The notes beneath the pieces were generated by a model, which worked only from the letters and a program-made list of their open reading frames with translations, made no database searches and was not told the origin of the DNA. This document shows, piece after piece, positions 1,377-48,976 of a DNA stretch of 48,976 nt. This stretch comes from Dehalococcoidia bacterium (GTDB taxonomy: Bacteria > Chloroflexota > Dehalococcoidia > SM23-28-2 > HRBIN24). Location of the stretch: the NCBI GenBank assembly GCA_034435615.1, contig DAOTWZ010000079.1:1-48976 (forward strand), read 5' to 3'. Position 1 is the stretch's first letter; every line of letters begins with the position of its first letter. The translations under genes and the position numbers were made by a program.

Positions 1377-2831
1377 TCAGACGTCGTAGTAGAGGTAGAA
1401 CTCGTAGGGGTGGGGGCGGAGCCGGATGGGGTCTATCTCCCGCTTCCGCTTGTACTCCGTCCAGGTCTGGAGGAGGTCATGGGTGAAGACGCCGCCCCGC
1501 AGGAGGAAGTCATGGTCTTCCTCCAGGGCACGCAGGGCCTCCTCCAGGCTGCCGGGGACGGTGCGGATGGCGGCGGCCACCTCGGGGGGTAGCTCGTAGA
1601 CGTCGGTGTCCAGGGGGTCGCCGGGGTCCATCTCGTTGAGGATGCCGTCCAGCCCCGCCATGAGAATGGCGGCGAAGGCCAGGTAGGGGTTGCAGGAGGG
1701 GTCGGGCGGGCGGAACTCTACCCGCTTGGCGGCGGGACTGCGCGAGTAGACGGGGATGCGGGCGGCGGCGGAGCGGTTGCGCTGAGAGTAGACCAGGTTG
1801 ACGGGGGCCTCAAAGCCGGGGACGAGCCGCCGGTAGGAGTTGGTGGTGGGGGCGATGAGGGCGCAGAGGGCGCGGGCGTGGGCCAGCAGCCCGCCGATGA
1901 AGTAGAGGCCCAGGAGGCTCATCTGGGCGTAGCCCTCCGGGTCGTAGAAGAGGTTCTCGCCGTTCTTCCAGAGGCTGACATGGACGTGCATGCCGGAGCC
2001 GTTGTCGCCGAAGATGGGCTTGGGCATGAAGGTGACGGTCTTGTCGTGCTCCCGGGCGACATTCTTGAGGATGTATTTGTAGAGCATGACCTGGTCGGCC
2101 ATGCGGGTGAGGGTCTGATAGCGCATGTCTATCTCGCCCTGGCCGGCGGTGGCCACCTCGTGGTGGTGGACCTCCACCTCGATGCCGGCCTGGAGCATCT
2201 TCAGGACGGCCTCCGAGCGGATGTCCTGGAGGCTGTCCACCGGCGGGGCGGGGAAGTAGCCCTCCTTGTAACGGGGGCGGTGGCCCAGGTTCTTTCCCGG
2301 GCGGCCGGCGTTCCAGGCCCCCTCCTCGGAGTCGATGGCGTAGTAGCCCTCGTGCTCGTTCTGGTCGAAGCGGACGGCGTCGAGGATGAAGAACTCCACC
2401 TCGGGGCCGAAGTAGGCGGTGTCGGCTATGCCGGTCTCCGCCAGGTAGCGCTCCGCCTTCTGGGCGATGTAGCGCGGGTCCCGCCAGTAGCGCTCGCGGG
2501 TGACGGGGTCGCGCACGTCGCAGATGATGGAGAGGGTGGGGACGCGGTAGATGGGGTCCAGGAAGGCGCTGGCCGGGTCGGGCACCAGGAGCATGTCGCT
2601 CTCCTGGATGTGCTGGAAGCCCCGTATGGAGGAGCCGTCGAAGCCGATACCCTCGCTGAAGATCGTCTCGTCCAGGGCCCTGGCGGGGATGGAGAAGTGC
2701 TGCAGGGTGCCCGGGAGGTCGGTGAACTTGAGGTCCACCATCTTAACGTCCCCCTCCCGGCAGAGGGCGATGACGTCAGCAGGGGTCCGGGGCCTTCTCT
2801 CCACCGCTCTCCCCTCCTCGCTCGCGGTCAC
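1377..2831 (-). CDS. glnA: Glutamine synthetase type I (GlnA).
   Basis: The 484-aa ORF contains GS motifs ([26 protein letters not shown]) and a C-terminal catalytic domain. It has a GTG start overlapping the upstream gene's TGA stop (GTGA). Confidence 0.9.
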
Positions 2832-4249
2832 TGCTGGCCATCCTCCGGCTGCGGCTGCTGGGGAGCGGGGGCCTGGTCGGCGCCCTTGAGGCCGGGCAGC
2901 CGCCTGAGCAGCTCCTCCAGCTTGACGCCGGTGAGGGCCTCGACGATGGGCGGTAGCTGGGCGATGACCTCGGTGACGTCCCGGGTGACCTTGCTGGCGC
3001 CGGTGGAGTCGCCTCCCCCGGAGATGACGACGATGCGCTCGGTGCGGGCGAGGGGGGCGGCCACGGCTTCGGCCATCTTGGGGAGGACGTTGACCAGGAC
3101 TTCAGTGACGGCGGCCTGGTTGTAGCGGGCCCAGGCATCGGCCTTGCGGTCCATGGTCTGGGCCTCGGAGAGGCCCTTCTCCCTGATGACCTCCGCCTCG
3201 GCGAGGCCGCGGGCCCGCAGCGCCTCGGCCTCCCCCTGGGCCTCCGCCTCCAGGCGGTAGCGCTCCGCCTCGGCCAGGGCCTGGATGCGCTGGCGCTCCG
3301 CCTCGGCGGGACGGATGACAGTGGCCATGAGCTCCCGCTCCTTGCGGAGGATCTCCTTCTCCTCTAGCTCCGTCTGCAGCTCCTTCTCCAGGATGCCGAG
3401 CTGCACCTCCTCCCGCTTGACGAGCTGAGCGGTCTTGAAGCGCTGGAGGTCGTAGGCCAGGTCGGCCTCGGCGCGGCGCTGGTTGATGGCGGCCTCCACC
3501 TCCGCCCGCTTCAGCTCGTAGTCGCGGCGGGCCTCCTCTATCTTGGTGTCCACCTGGTAGCGGTAGGACTTGGCCTCCTCGTCGGCCCTGGCCTCGCCGA
3601 TGATGGCGTCCCGCTTCACCTGGGCGGTGCGAGGGCGGCCCAGGGCCTCCAGGTAGCCGCGGGGGTCGTTGATATTGCGGATGGTGAGGGAGACGATCTC
3701 CAGCCCCATCTTGGCCAGGTCACGGCTGGCCAGCTCCTTGACCCTCTCGGCGAACTCCCGTCGCTGCGTGTAGAGCTCCTCTATGGAGATGGTGCCCAGG
3801 ACGGCCCGCATGTGCCCCTCCACTATCTGGAGGGCGGTCTTCATGATCTCCTCCTGGGGACGGGAGAGGAAGTGCTCGGCGGCGGCCTGGATGGCCTCCT
3901 CGTCCCCCCTGACCTTGACGTGGGCGACGCCGTCCACCGCCACGGGGACGCCATGGACGGTGTAGACCTCCGGCGTCTTGACCTCCAGCCCCATCAGCTC
4001 CAGGGAGAGGCGGCGGGCCTGCTCTATGATGGGCCAGACCACGGTGCCGCCGCCCCAGATGACGCGGTAGCCCAGGGTGCGCCGCCGGCCCTCCCGATCC
4101 ACCACGGTGCGGCGGCGGCCGCTGACGATGAGGACCTCGTTGGGGCCCACCTTGGTGTAGCGGGCGGCCGCCACCGGCAGGAGGACGGGCCAGCCCACAG
4201 CCCAGGCCAGCAGCCACAACAGGGAAGAGAGGGGACGCGCCTCCGTCAT
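2828..4249 (-). CDS. SPFH/band-7 flotillin-family membrane scaffold protein (FloT/YuaG-like).
   Basis: The 473-aa ORF has an N-terminal hydrophobic anchor, an SPFH domain and a long Glu/Ala/Arg-rich coiled-coil region ([26 protein letters not shown]). The ATG at 4249 is preceded by GGAGGTGA. Confidence 0.85.
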
Positions 4250-4255
4250 GGCCCA

Positions 4256-5561
<1,306 letters not shown>

Positions 5562-6833
5562 CTAGCGGGCGTAGGCGCGCTCCCCGTGCTCGGCCAGGTC
5601 CACCCCCACCAGCTCCTCCCGGGGGGAGACGCGCAGGCCCATGGTCCAGTCCAGGAGCTTGAGGATGGCGAAGGTCATGACGAAGGAGTAGCCCCAGGTG
5701 GCGCCGATGCTGGCCAGCTGGGCCAGGAGCTGCTCCGGCCGCCCGTCTATGACGCCGCCGATGCCGCCCCGGAAGCCGGCCGTCTCCGTGACCAGGGCGG
5801 TGGCGAAGATGCCGGTGGCCAGGGCGCCCCAGGTGCCGCCGATGCCGTGGACGGCCCAGACATCCAGGGCGTCGTCCACTCCCAGCCAGCCCCGCAGGCG
5901 CGTCGCCAGGTAGCAGAGGACGCCCGCCCCGGCGCCGATGATGGTGGCGGGCAGGGCGTTGAGGTAGCCATCGGCGGCGTCCCAGGCCCCCACGAAGCCG
6001 GAGGCCGGGGTTATGGCCACCAGCCCCGCCACGGCCCCGGTGGCCGCTCCGGTGACGCTGGGCACACCCTGGTAGGCCCAGCTCATGGCCAGCCAGGCCA
6101 CCGTGGCGGCGGCCGCCGCCGTGTTGGTGACCACGAAGGCGTTGGCTGCGGAGGCGTTGGCCGCCACGGCGCTGCCGGCGTTGAAGCCGAACCAGCCGAA
6201 CCAGAGGAGGGCCGCCCCCAGCACCACGTAGGGGACGTTGTGGGGCTCCATGGGCATCCGCCCCAGCCCCAGCCGCTTGCCGAAGGCCAGGGCCGCCGCC
6301 AGCCCCGCCACCCCCGAGTTGATGTGGACCACCGTCCCGCCGGCGAAATCGTAGGCTCCCAGGCCGCCCAGGACGCCCAGCCAGCCGTTCTGCGCCCACA
6401 CCCAGTGGGCGATGGGAGCGTAGACCAGCGTGGACCAGAGGACGACGAATACCAGGAAGGTGCTGAACTTGGCCCGCTCGGCGAAGGCGCCCGTCACCAG
6501 GGCGGGCGTGATGATGGCGAACATGAGCTGGAAGGCCATGTAGGCCAGATGGGGCACGGTGGCGGCGTAGGGACCGGGCTCGCTCCCCACGTGGCGCAGC
6601 CCGAACCAGGAGAGATCGCCGATGAAGCCGCCGTGGTCCGGCCCGAAGGCCAGACTGTAGCCCCAGAAGACCCAGAGCAGGGAGACGACGGCGATGATGC
6701 TGAACCCCTGCATGATGGTGGCGATGACGTTCTTCTCTCGCACCAGGCCGCCGTAGAAGAAGGCGAGGCCCGGAGTCATGAGGAGCACCAGGGCAGCCGA
6801 GGCCAGCACCCAGGCGGTATCGCCGCTGTCCAT
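5562..6833 (-). CDS. amt: Ammonium transporter (Amt/MEP family).
   Basis: The multi-TM protein carries Amt motifs (GAFAERAKFS, VVHINSGVAGLAAALAFGKR, DDALDVWAVHGIGGTWG). I prefer the ATG at 6833 (MDSGDTAWVL), which follows GGAGGAGA, over the unsupported ATG at 6872. Confidence 0.88.
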   Translation of the reverse strand: MDSGDTAWVLASAALVLLMTPGLAFFYGGLVREKNVIATIMQGFSIIAVVSLLWVFWGYSLAFGPDHGGFIGDLSWFGLRHVGSEPGPYAATVPHLAYMAFQLMFAIITPALVTGAFAERAKFSTFLVFVVLWSTLVYAPIAHWVWAQNGWLGVLGGLGAYDFAGGTVVHINSGVAGLAAALAFGKRLGLGRMPMEPHNVPYVVLGAALLWFGWFGFNAGSAVAANASAANAFVVTNTAAAAATVAWLAMSWAYQGVPSVTGAATGAVAGLVAITPASGFVGAWDAADGYLNALPATIIGAGAGVLCYLATRLRGWLGVDDALDVWAVHGIGGTWGALATGIFATALVTETAGFRGGIGGVIDGRPEQLLAQLASIGATWGYSFVMTFAILKLLDWTMGLRVSPREELVGVDLAEHGERAYAR

Positions 6834-6911
6834 GGTCTCCTCCAGGGGCGCGGGGAGACTACTCCAGCCCATAGAGTGGCGCCGCAGCGGGCAAGCGGGG
6901 TTACCGGCCGG

Positions 6912-6936
6912 TTACGAATATGTTACATTCTCGTAA
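6912..6936. promoter_or_regulatory. A 25-bp near-perfect palindrome TTACGAATATGT-T-ACATTCTCGTAA in the divergent amt/pdxT intergenic region. It is a candidate operator.
   Basis: The arms match at 10 of 12 positions and are centred on 6924. A TAAAAT hexamer follows at 6934-6939. Confidence 0.45.
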
Positions 6937-7030
6937 AATATCGGCGTTTCTCCAGCGGGAGCCGCGGCCTAGCTCTCTGGCGCCCGCCGACCGGCGGCCC
7001 CGGGCCCCCACCCCACAGGGCGGGGCTTGT

Positions 7031-7039
7031 GCTAAAATA
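7031..7039 (+). promoter_or_regulatory. Extended -10 (TGCTAAAAT) for pdxT.
   Basis: It lies 16 nt upstream of the ATG at 7055, with an AGGGA SD between them. Confidence 0.35.
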
Positions 7040-7054
7040 GACGATGCAGGGACT

Positions 7055-7675
7055 ATGGCGCGCATAGGCATTCTGGCCCTCCAGGGCGATTTTCTCGAGC
7101 ACCAGGAAGTCCTCACCCGTCTGGGCCAGGAGGCCGTCCAGGTCCGCAGGCCCGAGCACCTCGAAGGACTGGACGGCCTCATCATACCCGGGGGTGAATC
7201 CACCACCTTTTGTCGTCTCATGCGGGACTTCGGCCTCTACGAGCCCCTGCGGGACCTCATCGCCGCCGGGCTCCCCACCTGGGGCACCTGCGCCGGCATG
7301 ATCGTCCTGGCCAAGCGGGTGCAGGACCTGCCCTACGCCACCCTGGAGGCGCTGGACGTCGAGGTGGACCGCAACGCCTACGGTCGCCAGGTGGACAGCT
7401 TCGAGGTGGAGCTGGCCGTCCCCTCGCTAGGCCGGCGACCCTTCCCGGCAGTCTTCATACGGGCCCCTGTGGTGCTGGAGGTAGGGGAGGGGGTGGAGGT
7501 GCTGGCCCGCCTGCCCCAGGGACCCGACCAGCCGCCGGCGGGCGCCGGCACCCCGGTGGCCCTGCGCCAGGGGCACGTACTGGCCACCTCCTTCCATCCC
7601 GAGCTGACCCGGGACACCCGCTTCCACCGCTACTTCCTGAGAATGGTAGGGGCGAGGCGGGCCCACAAGGCATGA
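7055..7675 (+). CDS. pdxT: Glutamine amidotransferase subunit PdxT (SNO family glutaminase), with no pdxS gene adjacent.
   Basis: The product MARIGILALQGDFLEHQEV...IPGGESTT...GTCAGMIVLAK...DRNAYGRQVDSFE...FIRAP...SFHPELT aligns along its whole length with Bacillus PdxT/YaaE. The start follows an extended -10 TGCTAAAAT and an AGGGA SD. Confidence 0.85.
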   Translation: MARIGILALQGDFLEHQEVLTRLGQEAVQVRRPEHLEGLDGLIIPGGESTTFCRLMRDFGLYEPLRDLIAAGLPTWGTCAGMIVLAKRVQDLPYATLEALDVEVDRNAYGRQVDSFEVELAVPSLGRRPFPAVFIRAPVVLEVGEGVEVLARLPQGPDQPPAGAGTPVALRQGHVLATSFHPELTRDTRFHRYFLRMVGARRAHKA

Positions 7676-8613
7676 CCGCGGTCTACGCCCTGAACCCCGC
7701 CCACCTCATCATCCTGGCCTCCCCCGTCAACCACCTGCGCCTGGACGAGGCCAGGCCCTGGGAGCGGCTCCTCCTGGAGCAGGCCTCCCCCCACCCCCTT
7801 CAGGTGGCCTGGGAGCACTGCCCGCCCTTCTCCCGAAGGCGGCGGGCCTGGATCAGCCTCCGCCGCTCCCAGGTGCGGGGCCTGCTGGCCAGCCGCCCCC
7901 GCTCCCGCCCCAGCGCCTGCGAGATAGACTCCCTGATGGTGATGGACGGCGAAGCGGAGACGGCGGTGCGGCTCCTGCGGGCGGCCTGCCAGGACCTGGC
8001 CCTGGACGGCGTGCAGCGGCTCTTCCTCCGCCTCGCCGCTGACAGCCCCCTCCTGTCCGCCGCCTGCCGGGCCGGCCTGGTGCCCTACCGCCGGGACTAT
8101 CTCTTCCGCTTGGAGCGGCGGAGGGAGGACAGCGAGGCCCTGCCCGGCCTCCGGCCCGCCACCACCGCCGACCTGCACGCCATCTACGCCCTCTACAGCA
8201 GCGTCGTCCCCGCCAGCATCCGCTACCTCGAGGGCGTCACCCTGCGGGAGTGGCAGGCCGCCCAGGAGCGCTGGGCCCGCCCCCGCGATCTCCTGCTGGC
8301 CAGAGACGGCCGCGCCCTCGCCTGGTTGCATATGGCGGCCCAGGACGGTTTCGCCCTCCTGTCCCTCCTCCTCCACCCGGAGGCCCAGGAGCAGGTGGCG
8401 TCCCTCCTGGACGAGGCGCTGGCCCACCTGCCGGGGGAAGGCCCCGCCTTCTGCCTGGTGCCCTCCTACCAGCCCCACCTGCTGACCGCCCTGGAACAGC
8501 GAGGGGCCAGCCCGGTCCGGGAGTACGTCACCCTGGCCAGCTACCTCCTGCGGCCCGTCCCCCGCGCCGTCCCGGAGCCAGAACGCATAGAGGGAGCTAT
8601 CCCGGTGAGCTGA
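7672..8613 (+). CDS. Hypothetical protein, about 313 aa, possibly a tandem degenerate GNAT-like fold.
   Basis: Its ATG at 7672 overlaps the pdxT TGA stop (ATGA). The product (MTAVYALNPAHLIILASPVNHL...) has two halves that each end in a GNAT-like beta-strand/helix pattern (...LFLRLAADSPLLSAACRAGLVPYRRDYLF; ...FCLVPSYQPHLLTALEQRGASPVREYVTLASYLL). There is no canonical Q/RxxGxG/A motif. Confidence 0.5.
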   Translation: MTAVYALNPAHLIILASPVNHLRLDEARPWERLLLEQASPHPLQVAWEHCPPFSRRRRAWISLRRSQVRGLLASRPRSRPSACEIDSLMVMDGEAETAVRLLRAACQDLALDGVQRLFLRLAADSPLLSAACRAGLVPYRRDYLFRLERRREDSEALPGLRPATTADLHAIYALYSSVVPASIRYLEGVTLREWQAAQERWARPRDLLLARDGRALAWLHMAAQDGFALLSLLLHPEAQEQVASLLDEALAHLPGEGPAFCLVPSYQPHLLTALEQRGASPVREYVTLASYLLRPVPRAVPEPERIEGAIPVS

Positions 8614-8616
8614 GCC

Positions 8617-10203
8617 GTGTTGAGGATAACTGACGACCTGGACGCCCTGCTGGCAGTAGTGCCGCCCCACATCGCCGACGCCCTCCGCCGGCGCCACGAT
8701 AACTTCGAGCTGCTGGAGATAGTCATGGACCTGGGGCGCCGGCCCCAGGCCCGCTACCCGGGCAGGGAGGTGACCCTCAGCGAGCGCGAGGTCACCCACG
8801 AGGACATCGAATACGTCACCTCCCGCATCGGCGAGTTCACCACCGACAACCGCGCTGGCATCGAGCGGACGCTGCACCGCATCTCCGCCATCCGCAACCG
8901 GCGGGGGCGCATCGTCGGCCTCACCTGCCGCGTCGGTCGCGCCGTCTACGGCACTGTGCGCATCATCCAGGACCTGCTGGAGTCCGGCAAGAGCCTGCTC
9001 CTCCTGGGCCGCCCCGGCGTGGGCAAGACCACCCTCCTGCGGGAGGCCGCCCGCTACCTCTCCGATGAGCTGGGCAAGCGGGTCATCGTAGTGGACACGT
9101 CCAACGAGATCGCCGGCGACGGCGACATACCCCACCCCGGCATCGGCACCGCCCGACGGATGCAGGTGCCCACCCCTTCCCTGCAGCACGCCGTCATGAT
9201 CGAGGCGGTGGAGAACCACATGCCGGAGGTCATCATCATCGACGAGATCGGCACCGAGCTGGAGGCGATGGCCGCCCGCACCATCGCCGAGCGGGGGGTG
9301 CAGTTGGTGGCCACCGCCCACGGCAACAGCCTGGACAACCTCATCATCAACCCCACCCTCTCGGACCTGGTGGGGGGCGTGCAGTCCGTGACCCTGTCCG
9401 ACGAGGAGGCGCGGCGCCGCGGCACTCAGAAGGCCATCCTGGAGCGGCGGGCGCCGCCCACCTTCGATATGGTGGTGGAGATCCAGGGCTTCAACCGGGT
9501 GGCCCTCCATCGGGACGTGGCCGCCACCGTGGACGCCATCCTCCGCGGCTACCCCGTCCAGGCGGAGATCCGGGAGCTGGACCAGGAGGGAGAGGTACGG
9601 GTGCTCCAGCAGGCCCACTTGGAGGTGGTGACGCCGGGCCGGCGGGGCCGGGAGGGGATGGGGACCCTCCCGTTCGCCGCCAGCGAGGGGGCCCCCGCCC
9701 CCGGCCGGCGGCAGGGGGGCGCGCCCGCCCAGGCGCCAGCGCGCCAGCGCCGCATCTACCCTTTCGGCGTCTCCCGTGACCGCCTGGAGCAGGCCCTGAT
9801 GGAGACCCGCTTCCCGGCCGTCATCGTCAACTCCCTGGCCGACGCCGACGCCCTGGTCACCCTCAGGAGCTACTACCGCCGGCGGCCCCAGGTGGTGCGG
9901 GAGGCGGAGGAGCGGGGCATACCCATCTACGTCGTCAAGAGCAACACCGTCTACCAGCTAGAGCAGTGCTTCCTGGCCATGCAGCGGGAGCGCAGCGGCG
10001 ACCCGGTGGCCGCCGCCCTCTCCGAGGCGGAGGAAGCCATCGGCGAGGTCCTCAACAGCGACCGCCCGGTGGACCTCTCCCCCCAGAACGCCTACATACG
10101 CCGCCTCCAGCACATGCTGGCCCAGCGCTACAACCTCTCCTCCCAGAGCGTGGGGCGCGAGCCTCACCGCTACGTGCGCATCCTGCCCCAGAGCATGGAG
10201 TAG
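8617..10203 (+). CDS. AAA+/P-loop ATPase with a C-terminal R3H nucleic-acid-binding domain (Ycf45/SpoIIIAA-like family).
   Basis: The GTG start lies 4 nt after the previous stop. The product has a Walker A (GRPGVGKTT) and Walker B (VIIIDEIG), plus a C-terminal R3H-like region ([36 protein letters not shown]). Confidence 0.7.
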
Positions 10204-48903: not shown

Positions 48904-48976
48904 TGGCGCGCTCGGTGGGATTCGAACCCACGACCTCAGCCTCCGCAGGGCTGCGCTCTGTCCGGGCTGAGCTACG
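48904..48976 (-). tRNA. tRNA truncated at the window edge (positions 6-76 present), with apparent anticodon GCG (Arg) and encoded CCA.
   Basis: The reverse complement is CGUAGCUCAGCCCGGACAGAGCGCAGCCCUGCGGAGGCUGAGGUCGUGGGUUCGAAUCCCACCGAGCGCGCCA. It has D, anticodon and T arms, and the anticodon loop is CUGCGGA. Confidence 0.7.

Follow-up and report, generated by a model that had tools for sequence, protein, structure and literature searches.

In actinobacteria, the cis-element of the nitrogen regulator GlnR is described as two 22-bp boxes, each of which combines an a-site (gTnAc) with a b-site (GaAAc) placed 6 nt apart (PMC5826061; PMC10235972), and the commonest motif found in Streptomyces venezuelae is GTnAC-n6-GTnAC (PMC5826061). 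The co-crystal of the DNA-binding domain of GlnR from Saccharopolyspora erythraea was made with GTAAC as consensus for both sites and shows a head-to-tail mode of binding, and cryo-electron microscopy of the Mycobacterium tuberculosis amtB promoter has placed four GlnR protomers, likewise head to tail, on four sites around the -35 element (PMC10235972). We describe here a control region of similar composition from an uncultured Dehalococcoidia bacterium (contig DAOTWZ010000079.1), the whole analysed stretch of which is 48,976 nt long with a GC content of 70.6% and is referred to below as the window. The region lies between the minus-strand gene amtB, for an ammonium transporter, and the plus-strand gene pdxT, as a preliminary description of this DNA had correctly placed it, and it had been singled out there for an AT-rich 25-bp palindrome that was read as the operator of a dimeric regulator. 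Our analysis points to a different feature of the same DNA, an array of four pentamers in 11-bp steps on the amtB strand with a GC content of 42%, and we consider it probable that this array is a tandem four-site element for a GlnR-type winged-helix response regulator of the OmpR/PhoB family.

Read along the amtB strand from 6937 to 6900, the element consists of the pentamers TTTAC, GTAAC, GTAAC and GTAAC (boxes 1 to 4 in Table 1), which are separated by the 6-nt spacers gagaat, atattc and cggccg and begin at 6937, 6926, 6915 and 6904, in exact 11-bp steps. The pentamer sequences (three exact copies of GTAAC plus TTTAC), the 11-bp period and the grouping into two 22-bp boxes are those of a GlnR box, and since GTAAC-n6-GTAAC matches the OmpR-type GlnR site exactly, and does so twice, the earlier statement that no known consensus fits was mistaken. 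Box 1 agrees with GTAAC at 3 of 5 positions, and the variants TTTAC, TTAAC and TTCAC are seen at the equivalent position of other arrays. A triple of exact GTAAC pentamers at 11-bp spacing is expected about 6e-6 times per window, and GTAACN6GTAAC with no more than one mismatch occurs twice in the window as against an expectation of 0.12. The array is the unique top score on either strand of these 49 kb; no other site scores near it, and neither a second array nor a half-array was found near other genes of the window. An extra GAAAC pentamer (6949-6953, minus strand) lies upstream of box 1 at a distance of 13 nt instead of 11 and is out of phase with the array; among the few substitutions that distinguish close relatives, one falls directly after it (GAAACG/GAAACA).

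The near copies of the locus that we examined include the window's own record (L147) and five others (L148-L152); with an intergenic region that is 98% identical, they are uninformative for footprinting. More can be learned from bacterium HR24 (L004, unclassified Bacteria at NCBI), the nearest named relative among amtB loci that were gathered with positions 5565-6834 as the query, by which closer named relatives may be missed. Its coding DNA is 79-83% identical to that of the window, and its intergenic region cannot be aligned by blastn; the array nonetheless recurs there as GTAAC-n6-GCAAC-n6-GTAAC-n6-GTAAT, with box starts at -100/-89/-78/-67 from the amtB ATG as compared to -104/-93/-82/-71 in the window, where box 4 ends 66 nt before that codon. 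By a hand count, box by box, 16 of 20 pentamer positions are identical between the two arrays and 6 of 24 spacer positions, the latter being at the level of chance. The spacers of the inner boxes are complementary at 1/6 and 1/6 positions in HR24 and at 4/6 in the window, and where the window has pdxT upstream of amtB, HR24 has a thioredoxin-reductase-like gene that runs in the same direction as amtB. Because the boxes are kept while spacers, palindrome and neighbouring gene differ, the element belongs to amtB, and what is conserved is the set of phased boxes, as for a GlnR box, and not the palindrome. The suggestion that amtB and pdxT share a divergent control element has accordingly to be given up: in HR24 the array keeps to amtB next to a different upstream gene, and in all the related loci the boxes point the same way with respect to amtB. 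The HR24 amtB itself (L004, 3984-5261) is read in three frame segments (frames 3, 2, 3), implying two frameshifts that represent either an assembly error or a pseudogene.

A scan for four G(T/A)AAC-like pentamers in phase, run on 146 other amtB loci of public genomes and metagenomes, gave a wider view of the array. A sense-strand array within 250 nt upstream of amtB was found in 13 of the 146 loci (34.9 kb searched), and the other 1.80 Mb contained 7 array sites, two of them directly before a second amt gene (L022, L028), three on the strand of amtB and farther upstream of it (L003, L088), and only 2 antisense. Array hits fell on the amtB sense strand in 34 of 36 cases (~1 Mb of loci), and the asymmetric variants GAAAC and TTAAC fix the direction of the array, which is thus oriented head to tail in the manner of GlnR boxes. 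At a slightly lower score, the scan also recovers the amtB promoters of Streptomyces, Kitasatospora, Mycolicibacterium and Williamsia. In these genera the control of amtB by GlnR is established. Arrays are present as well in metagenome-assembled genomes (MAGs) labelled Dehalococcoidia (L003) and Thermoflexaceae (L022), both of the Chloroflexota. In the 17 arrays compared, the spacers are for the most part complementary at about the ~1.5/6 expected by chance, and the 4/6 of the window is the maximum. Two of the surveyed loci, L022 (2232-2291, 4298-4346) and L028 (5851-5888), have two amt genes with an array for each, and the Dehalococcoidia MAG has arrays at 3299-3336 and 3624-3661, 340-700 nt upstream of its second amt gene.

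With the GlnR boxes of amtB in Streptomyces coelicolor and M. tuberculosis, the window has in common the 5-nt sites, the 6-nt spacers, the total of four sites and their direct orientation upstream of amtB-glnK. It differs from them in that all its sites belong to the GTAAC/TTTAC type and GAAAC b-sites are absent; in that the array is apparently one helical turn farther upstream of a -10-like hexamer; in that orfX, a flotillin gene and glnA stand in the operon in place of glnD; and in that its host is not a recognised actinobacterium. Activation by PhoB at the pho boxes of Escherichia coli is an established mechanism. Those boxes repeat directly every 11 bp near the -35 position and are bound head to tail, an instance of the same family mechanism (compared in PMC10235972), but their core is different (taken here as TGTCA, versus GTAAC), with 3 mismatches in the best match that the region offers, and their regulon concerns phosphate and not nitrogen. 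Repetition of GTnAC with 6-nt spacers also links the window to the S. venezuelae motif (PMC5826061), whereas the window has three to four sites instead of two and comes from another organism. The sites of the MerR-type regulators TnrA and GlnR of Bacillus subtilis resemble the element in their role, the nitrogen regulation of amtB (nrgA) and glnA, and as an AT-rich 17-bp sequence, but they are true inverted repeats for a dimer, while the window has two mismatches in the core and a symmetry that is not kept in HR24.

Indications of the kind of protein that might bind such arrays come from those loci in which a regulator gene is part of the cluster. In L108, L086, L153 and L155, a gene for an OmpR-family regulator directly precedes the array and amtB, and in L154 it is found in the same cluster but one gene (asnB) further upstream, with the array staying next to amtB. 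These five loci have four phased boxes 5' of amtB-glnK(-glnA) in the same orientation as the window; they differ from it by the regulator gene within the cluster and by a last box, GAAAC, that is 10 nt from TAnnnT. The best matches of the L108 regulator (2220-2888) among solved structures are 8HIG, 8HIH and 8HML (E ~2e-33), which are GlnR of S. erythraea and M. tuberculosis, followed by RegX3 and MtrA, and its DNA-binding core is ~63% identical to that of S. erythraea GlnR by a hand count from the alignment. The three family members that were looked up, the regulators of L153-L155 (4001-4696), are 67-77% identical to the L108 protein. Their clusters contain a split gltB (glutamate synthase), the regulator, amtB, glnK and glnA, with nadE next in L153 and L155, and their array, GTAAC-n6-TTAAC-n6-GTAAT-n6-GAAA(C/T), stands directly 5' of amtB and is followed by a TAnnnT hexamer 10 nt on. 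In L108-type regulators the receiver-like domain has other residues (LLEM, MLAM) in place of the acidic pocket and the phospho-acceptor Asp, and the conserved Thr and Lys have been substituted too. Such a pseudo-receiver would fit a regulator that works independently of phosphorylation, and orphan GlnR has been reported to be of this kind. The family of OmpR-type regulators with a pseudo-receiver is large (7439 hits at E<=1e-20), and one close homologue is labelled Deltaproteobacteria bacterium.

The start of amtB is most probably the ATG at 6833 and not the first ATG of the open reading frame (ORF) at 6872: the N-terminus MDSGDTAW read from the former aligns with homologues, and an identical 423-aa product has been called in the public record of the MAG GCA_006214125.1 (contig VAPR01000723.1). 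With this start, the intergenic region extends from 6834 to 7054. The gaps within the series amtB-glnK-orfX-floT-glnA are 9, -11, 6 and -4 nt, the start of glnA overlapping the stop of the flotillin gene, and this tight spacing makes it probable that the five genes are co-transcribed, with glnA last. The occurrence of orfX, for which there were zero Pfam or NCBIfam matches, and of a flotillin gene within a nitrogen-assimilation operon is unusual. Coordinates of all these features are collected in Table 1.

Table 1. Features of the amtB-pdxT region and of the genes on either side of it, with positions counted from the first nucleotide of the window
Feature	Position	Strand	Basis or remark
Four-pentamer array, 11-bp period	6900-6937	-	sequence; two 22-bp GlnR-type boxes
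Box 1, TTTAC (promoter-distal, weaker site)	6933-6937	-	in phase with the other three boxes
Box 2, GTAAC	6922-6926	-	sequence; centre 6924 is the centre of the 25-bp inverted repeat
Box 3, GTAAC	6911-6915	-	sequence
Box 4, GTAAC (promoter-proximal)	6900-6904	-	sequence
25-bp inverted repeat, TTACGAATATGT-T-ACATTCTCGTAA	6912-6936		arms 6912-6923 and 6925-6936, 83% complementary
Candidate -10 hexamer CACTCT (nAnnnT type)	6873-6878	-	putative; 21 nt downstream of box 4
amtB Shine-Dalgarno sequence GGAGGAG	6837-6843	-	sequence; 3 nt 5' of ATG 6833
amtB, ammonium transporter, first gene of the operon	5562-6833	-	Pfam PF00909, E 2.3e-123
glnK, P-II signal protein	5214-5552	-	NCBIfam P-II models, E 8e-35; PF00543
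orfX, 322 aa, overlapping the end of glnK	4256-5224	-	gene call in public records; region conserved in HR24
floT, flotillin-like (Band_7/FloT)	2828-4249	-	NCBIfam FloT, E 3e-113, under the curated cutoff; PF01145
glnA, type I glutamine synthetase	1377-2831	-	TIGR00653, 652.8 bits (cutoff 429)
Extended -10-like sequence TGcTAAAAT	7030-7038	+	16 nt upstream of the pdxT ATG; holds the TAAAATA copy at 7033
pdxT	7055-7675	+	TIGR03800, 229.5 bits

A scan of the control region with the sigma-70 consensus returned zero promoters. In most of the related loci a TAnnnT or nAnnnT hexamer is found 10 nt after the last box, in agreement with the published position of the b2 site downstream of the -35 element. 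The window and HR24 have no such hexamer at this distance (CGCTGC and TTGCCC, respectively), and in the window the position equivalent to b2 would be vacant; at 21 nt after the last box, HR24 has CATGCT where the window has its candidate -10 hexamer. On this reading, the array of the window might be displaced upstream by one helical turn and stay on the same side of the helix, with its last box over the -35 position, in an arrangement like that of classical PhoB-type activation.

The palindrome that had first drawn attention to the region is real in the sense that a repeat finder recovers it at 6912-6936 and finds its arms complementary at 10 of 12 positions. To call it almost certainly significant was an overstatement, however, because the window contains 67 comparable inverted repeats (12-nt arms, at least 10 matches, gap of 0-3 nt) as compared to ~31 in Markov-1 random sequences. 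It is unusual for its AT-richness alone, being 28% GC and the sole one of the 67 with less than 45% GC. The pentamer GTAAC is self-complementary apart from its middle base, and boxes 1 and 3 sit 11 bp on either side of position 6924; of the 10 matched arm positions, 6 come from the nearly self-complementary pentamers (GT.AC) and the remaining 4 from two AT-rich spacers. The palindrome is therefore a by-product of boxes 1-3 together with two AT-rich spacers, and owes its appearance to the fact that GTAAC is almost its own reverse complement. Boxes 3 and 4 make a second and better palindrome, GTTACCGGCCGGTTAC, which occupies 6900-6915, overlaps the first and is symmetric at 14 of 16 positions; its spacer, CGGCCG, is a perfect palindrome. 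Overlapping palindromes are what a direct repeat of a quasi-symmetric unit is expected to produce, and they are not to be reconciled with a single dimer operator. The two copies of TAAAATA that had also been pointed out are present as described, at 6934-6940 and 7033-7039. Repeated 7-mers number 4 in the intergenic region, as against a mean of 4.0 in random sequences; a repeated 7-mer made up of A and T throughout occurs in 0.35% of random sequences, by a test that was picked after the repeat had been seen. The copy at 6934, which HR24 does not share, overlaps box 1 (read as TTTAC on the opposite strand).

These observations suggest a scheme in which each 5-nt box, with GTAAC as its consensus, would bind one DNA-binding domain. 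With 6-nt spacers, successive boxes would follow one another at a distance of one turn and face the same side of the helix, and up to four protomers might line up head to tail from 6937 to 6900. Just upstream of the amtB core promoter, such an assembly would most likely recruit RNA polymerase under nitrogen limitation, and the activation of amtB-glnK-orfX-floT-glnA would mean that one switch governs ammonium uptake, P-II signalling and glutamine synthetase. Several points weigh against a GlnR-type activator at this site. No OmpR-family gene was found by tblastn in the 49-kb window or in the 9-kb HR24 fragment, and Pfam scans of 20 window proteins likewise yielded no OmpR-family regulator. The array is apparently one helical turn farther from its -10-like hexamer than in the related loci (21 versus 10 nt), the -10 assignment being itself putative. 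The nitrogen genes of the window are all downstream of one and the same site, which makes it a single instance in this organism and not an enrichment across a regulon. The scoring of the survey favoured G(T/A)AAC, which makes the conservation of the pentamers partly circular, whereas the strand bias, position and spacing of the arrays are independent of it. Finally, the base-contacting residues of the recognition helix are common to PhoB and other family members, and specificity for GTAAC is not proven by them.

This last point bears on the idea that the same direct-repeat array is bound by another OmpR/PhoB regulator, resembling PhoP, MtrA or RegX3, which might act instead of a GlnR orthologue or compete with it and might be a repressor. 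There are precedents in Streptomyces, where PhoP competes with GlnR at the a3-b3 boxes of amtB (PMC5826061) and where MtrA is reported to repress the same nitrogen genes (PMC9151340); moreover, RegX3 and MtrA come closely behind GlnR among the matching structures, and recognition-helix residues are shared across the family. We nevertheless regard such a regulator as unlikely, given that the pentamer is exactly the GlnR consensus GTAAC, that the best match to TGTCA-n6-TGTCA (taken as the pho-box) has 3 mismatches, and that the regulators adjacent to arrays sit in nitrogen-assimilation clusters. A smaller probability still attaches to the palindrome as the operator of a symmetric dimer, such as TnrA or MerR-type GlnR, NtcA of the CRP family or AmtR of the TetR family, that would control amtB and pdxT divergently. 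The complementarity of the arms, the AT-richness in a GC-rich window and the position between divergent genes speak for such an operator, but the palindrome is not conserved in HR24, where the phased pentamers and not pdxT as a neighbour are retained, two overlapping palindromes, one centred at 6924 and one at 6907/6908, cannot both mark the centre of a dimer, palindromes of 10/12 quality abound in the window, and many boxes of the related loci are asymmetric (GAAAC, TTAAC) and lie on the sense strand of amtB in nearly all hits. The consensus sequences of the dimeric candidates fail as well. The TnrA/MerR-type GlnR operator (TGTNA-N7-TNACA) finds its best match in TGTTACATTCTCGTAAA, with 2 mismatches in the right half-site and no symmetry in HR24. 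The NtcA site (GTA-N8-TAC, ~22 nt upstream of the -10 element) is absent from the palindrome, its sole match with 1 mismatch, GTAACCCCGCTTGC, being box 4 plus flanking sequence, which by inspection has no match at the equivalent position of HR24. The best match to the AmtR site (CTAT-N6-ATAG) has 2 mismatches and lies at 7026-7039, away from the element, and matches to NtrC (TGCACC-N5-GGTGCA) have 5 mismatches. The consensuses of NrpR and PhoB also fail at the element, and the GG-N10-GC of a sigma-54 promoter shows 3 mismatches, with a GG..GC spacing that is off by one by inspection. What survives of the earlier proposal is that a protein very probably binds in the amtB control region and that nitrogen regulation is at issue, while the palindromic dimer operator and the regulators named for it, TnrA or MerR-type GlnR (2 core mismatches) and NtcA (no GTAN8TAC at the palindrome), have to make way for a directional array of pentamers phased at 11 bp, the spacers of which are non-complementary in HR24.

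It is highly improbable, in our view, that no specific regulator is involved and that the region is an AT-rich UP-element, curved DNA, a chance feature or an RNA hairpin. An AT-rich tract upstream of a promoter and TAAAAT-like hexamers are indeed present, but exact phased GTAAC pentamers go far beyond chance, and their position is conserved in HR24 amid divergence. As RNA, the sequence folds no better than its shuffles (z -1.35 and -1.55), and Rfam finds only tRNAs in the window, which leads us to reject a riboswitch or other RNA reading. The array is thus best seen as the probable tandem site of a GlnR-type regulator, with amtB and the genes behind it as its target.

On the other side of the intergenic region, TGcTAAAAT is plausible as the promoter of pdxT; ~90 nt separate it from the array, and a transcript begun there would have a very short leader. 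No evidence was found for regulation of pdxT by the array. A GC-rich palindrome, GGCCCCGGGCCC, is situated at 6996-7007 in the pdxT-proximal half of the intergenic region, adjoining a 4-bp insertion in L148-L151. The pdxT gene has no adjacent pdxS. Its stop is overlapped by the start of a 313-aa ORF (7672-8613, plus strand) that matches no family, after which comes the gene for a 528-aa SpoIIIAA-like ATPase (8617-10203) with PTPase and R3H domains. At the far end of the window, a tRNA gene on the minus strand (48907-48976; Rfam tRNA, 52.6 bits) is cut by the window end, its 5' end missing.

The kind of element described here is well known, and what it represents in the window is ordinary gene regulation, not a new mechanism. 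In a wider context, the GTAAC-box/GlnR-type system might extend beyond the actinobacteria, and the window might be an instance of a widespread, undescribed branch of it with the array shifted by one helical turn; to this broader proposition we would give about an even chance. It would unite the HR24-like thermophile, the Dehalococcoidia and Thermoflexaceae MAGs and the loci whose regulator has a close homologue labelled Deltaproteobacteria. Several of the loci examined here support a broad non-actinobacterial branch of GlnR with pseudo-receiver regulators, a reading that goes beyond the window itself. In the open-access literature, for which our coverage was incomplete, GlnR and Chloroflexi occur together in incidental mentions only, and no account of OmpR-type GlnR sites in Chloroflexi-like organisms came to light. 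For the organism at hand, an unknown palindrome can be replaced by the concrete assignment of a GlnR-type tandem site, which is probably a joint switch for ammonium uptake, P-II and glutamine synthetase in an uncultured thermophile. There is also a hint that the OmpR-type GlnR circuit, usually seen as an actinobacterial speciality, is used more widely, and if this is true, it would aid the annotation of nitrogen regulons in Chloroflexota-like and other MAGs.

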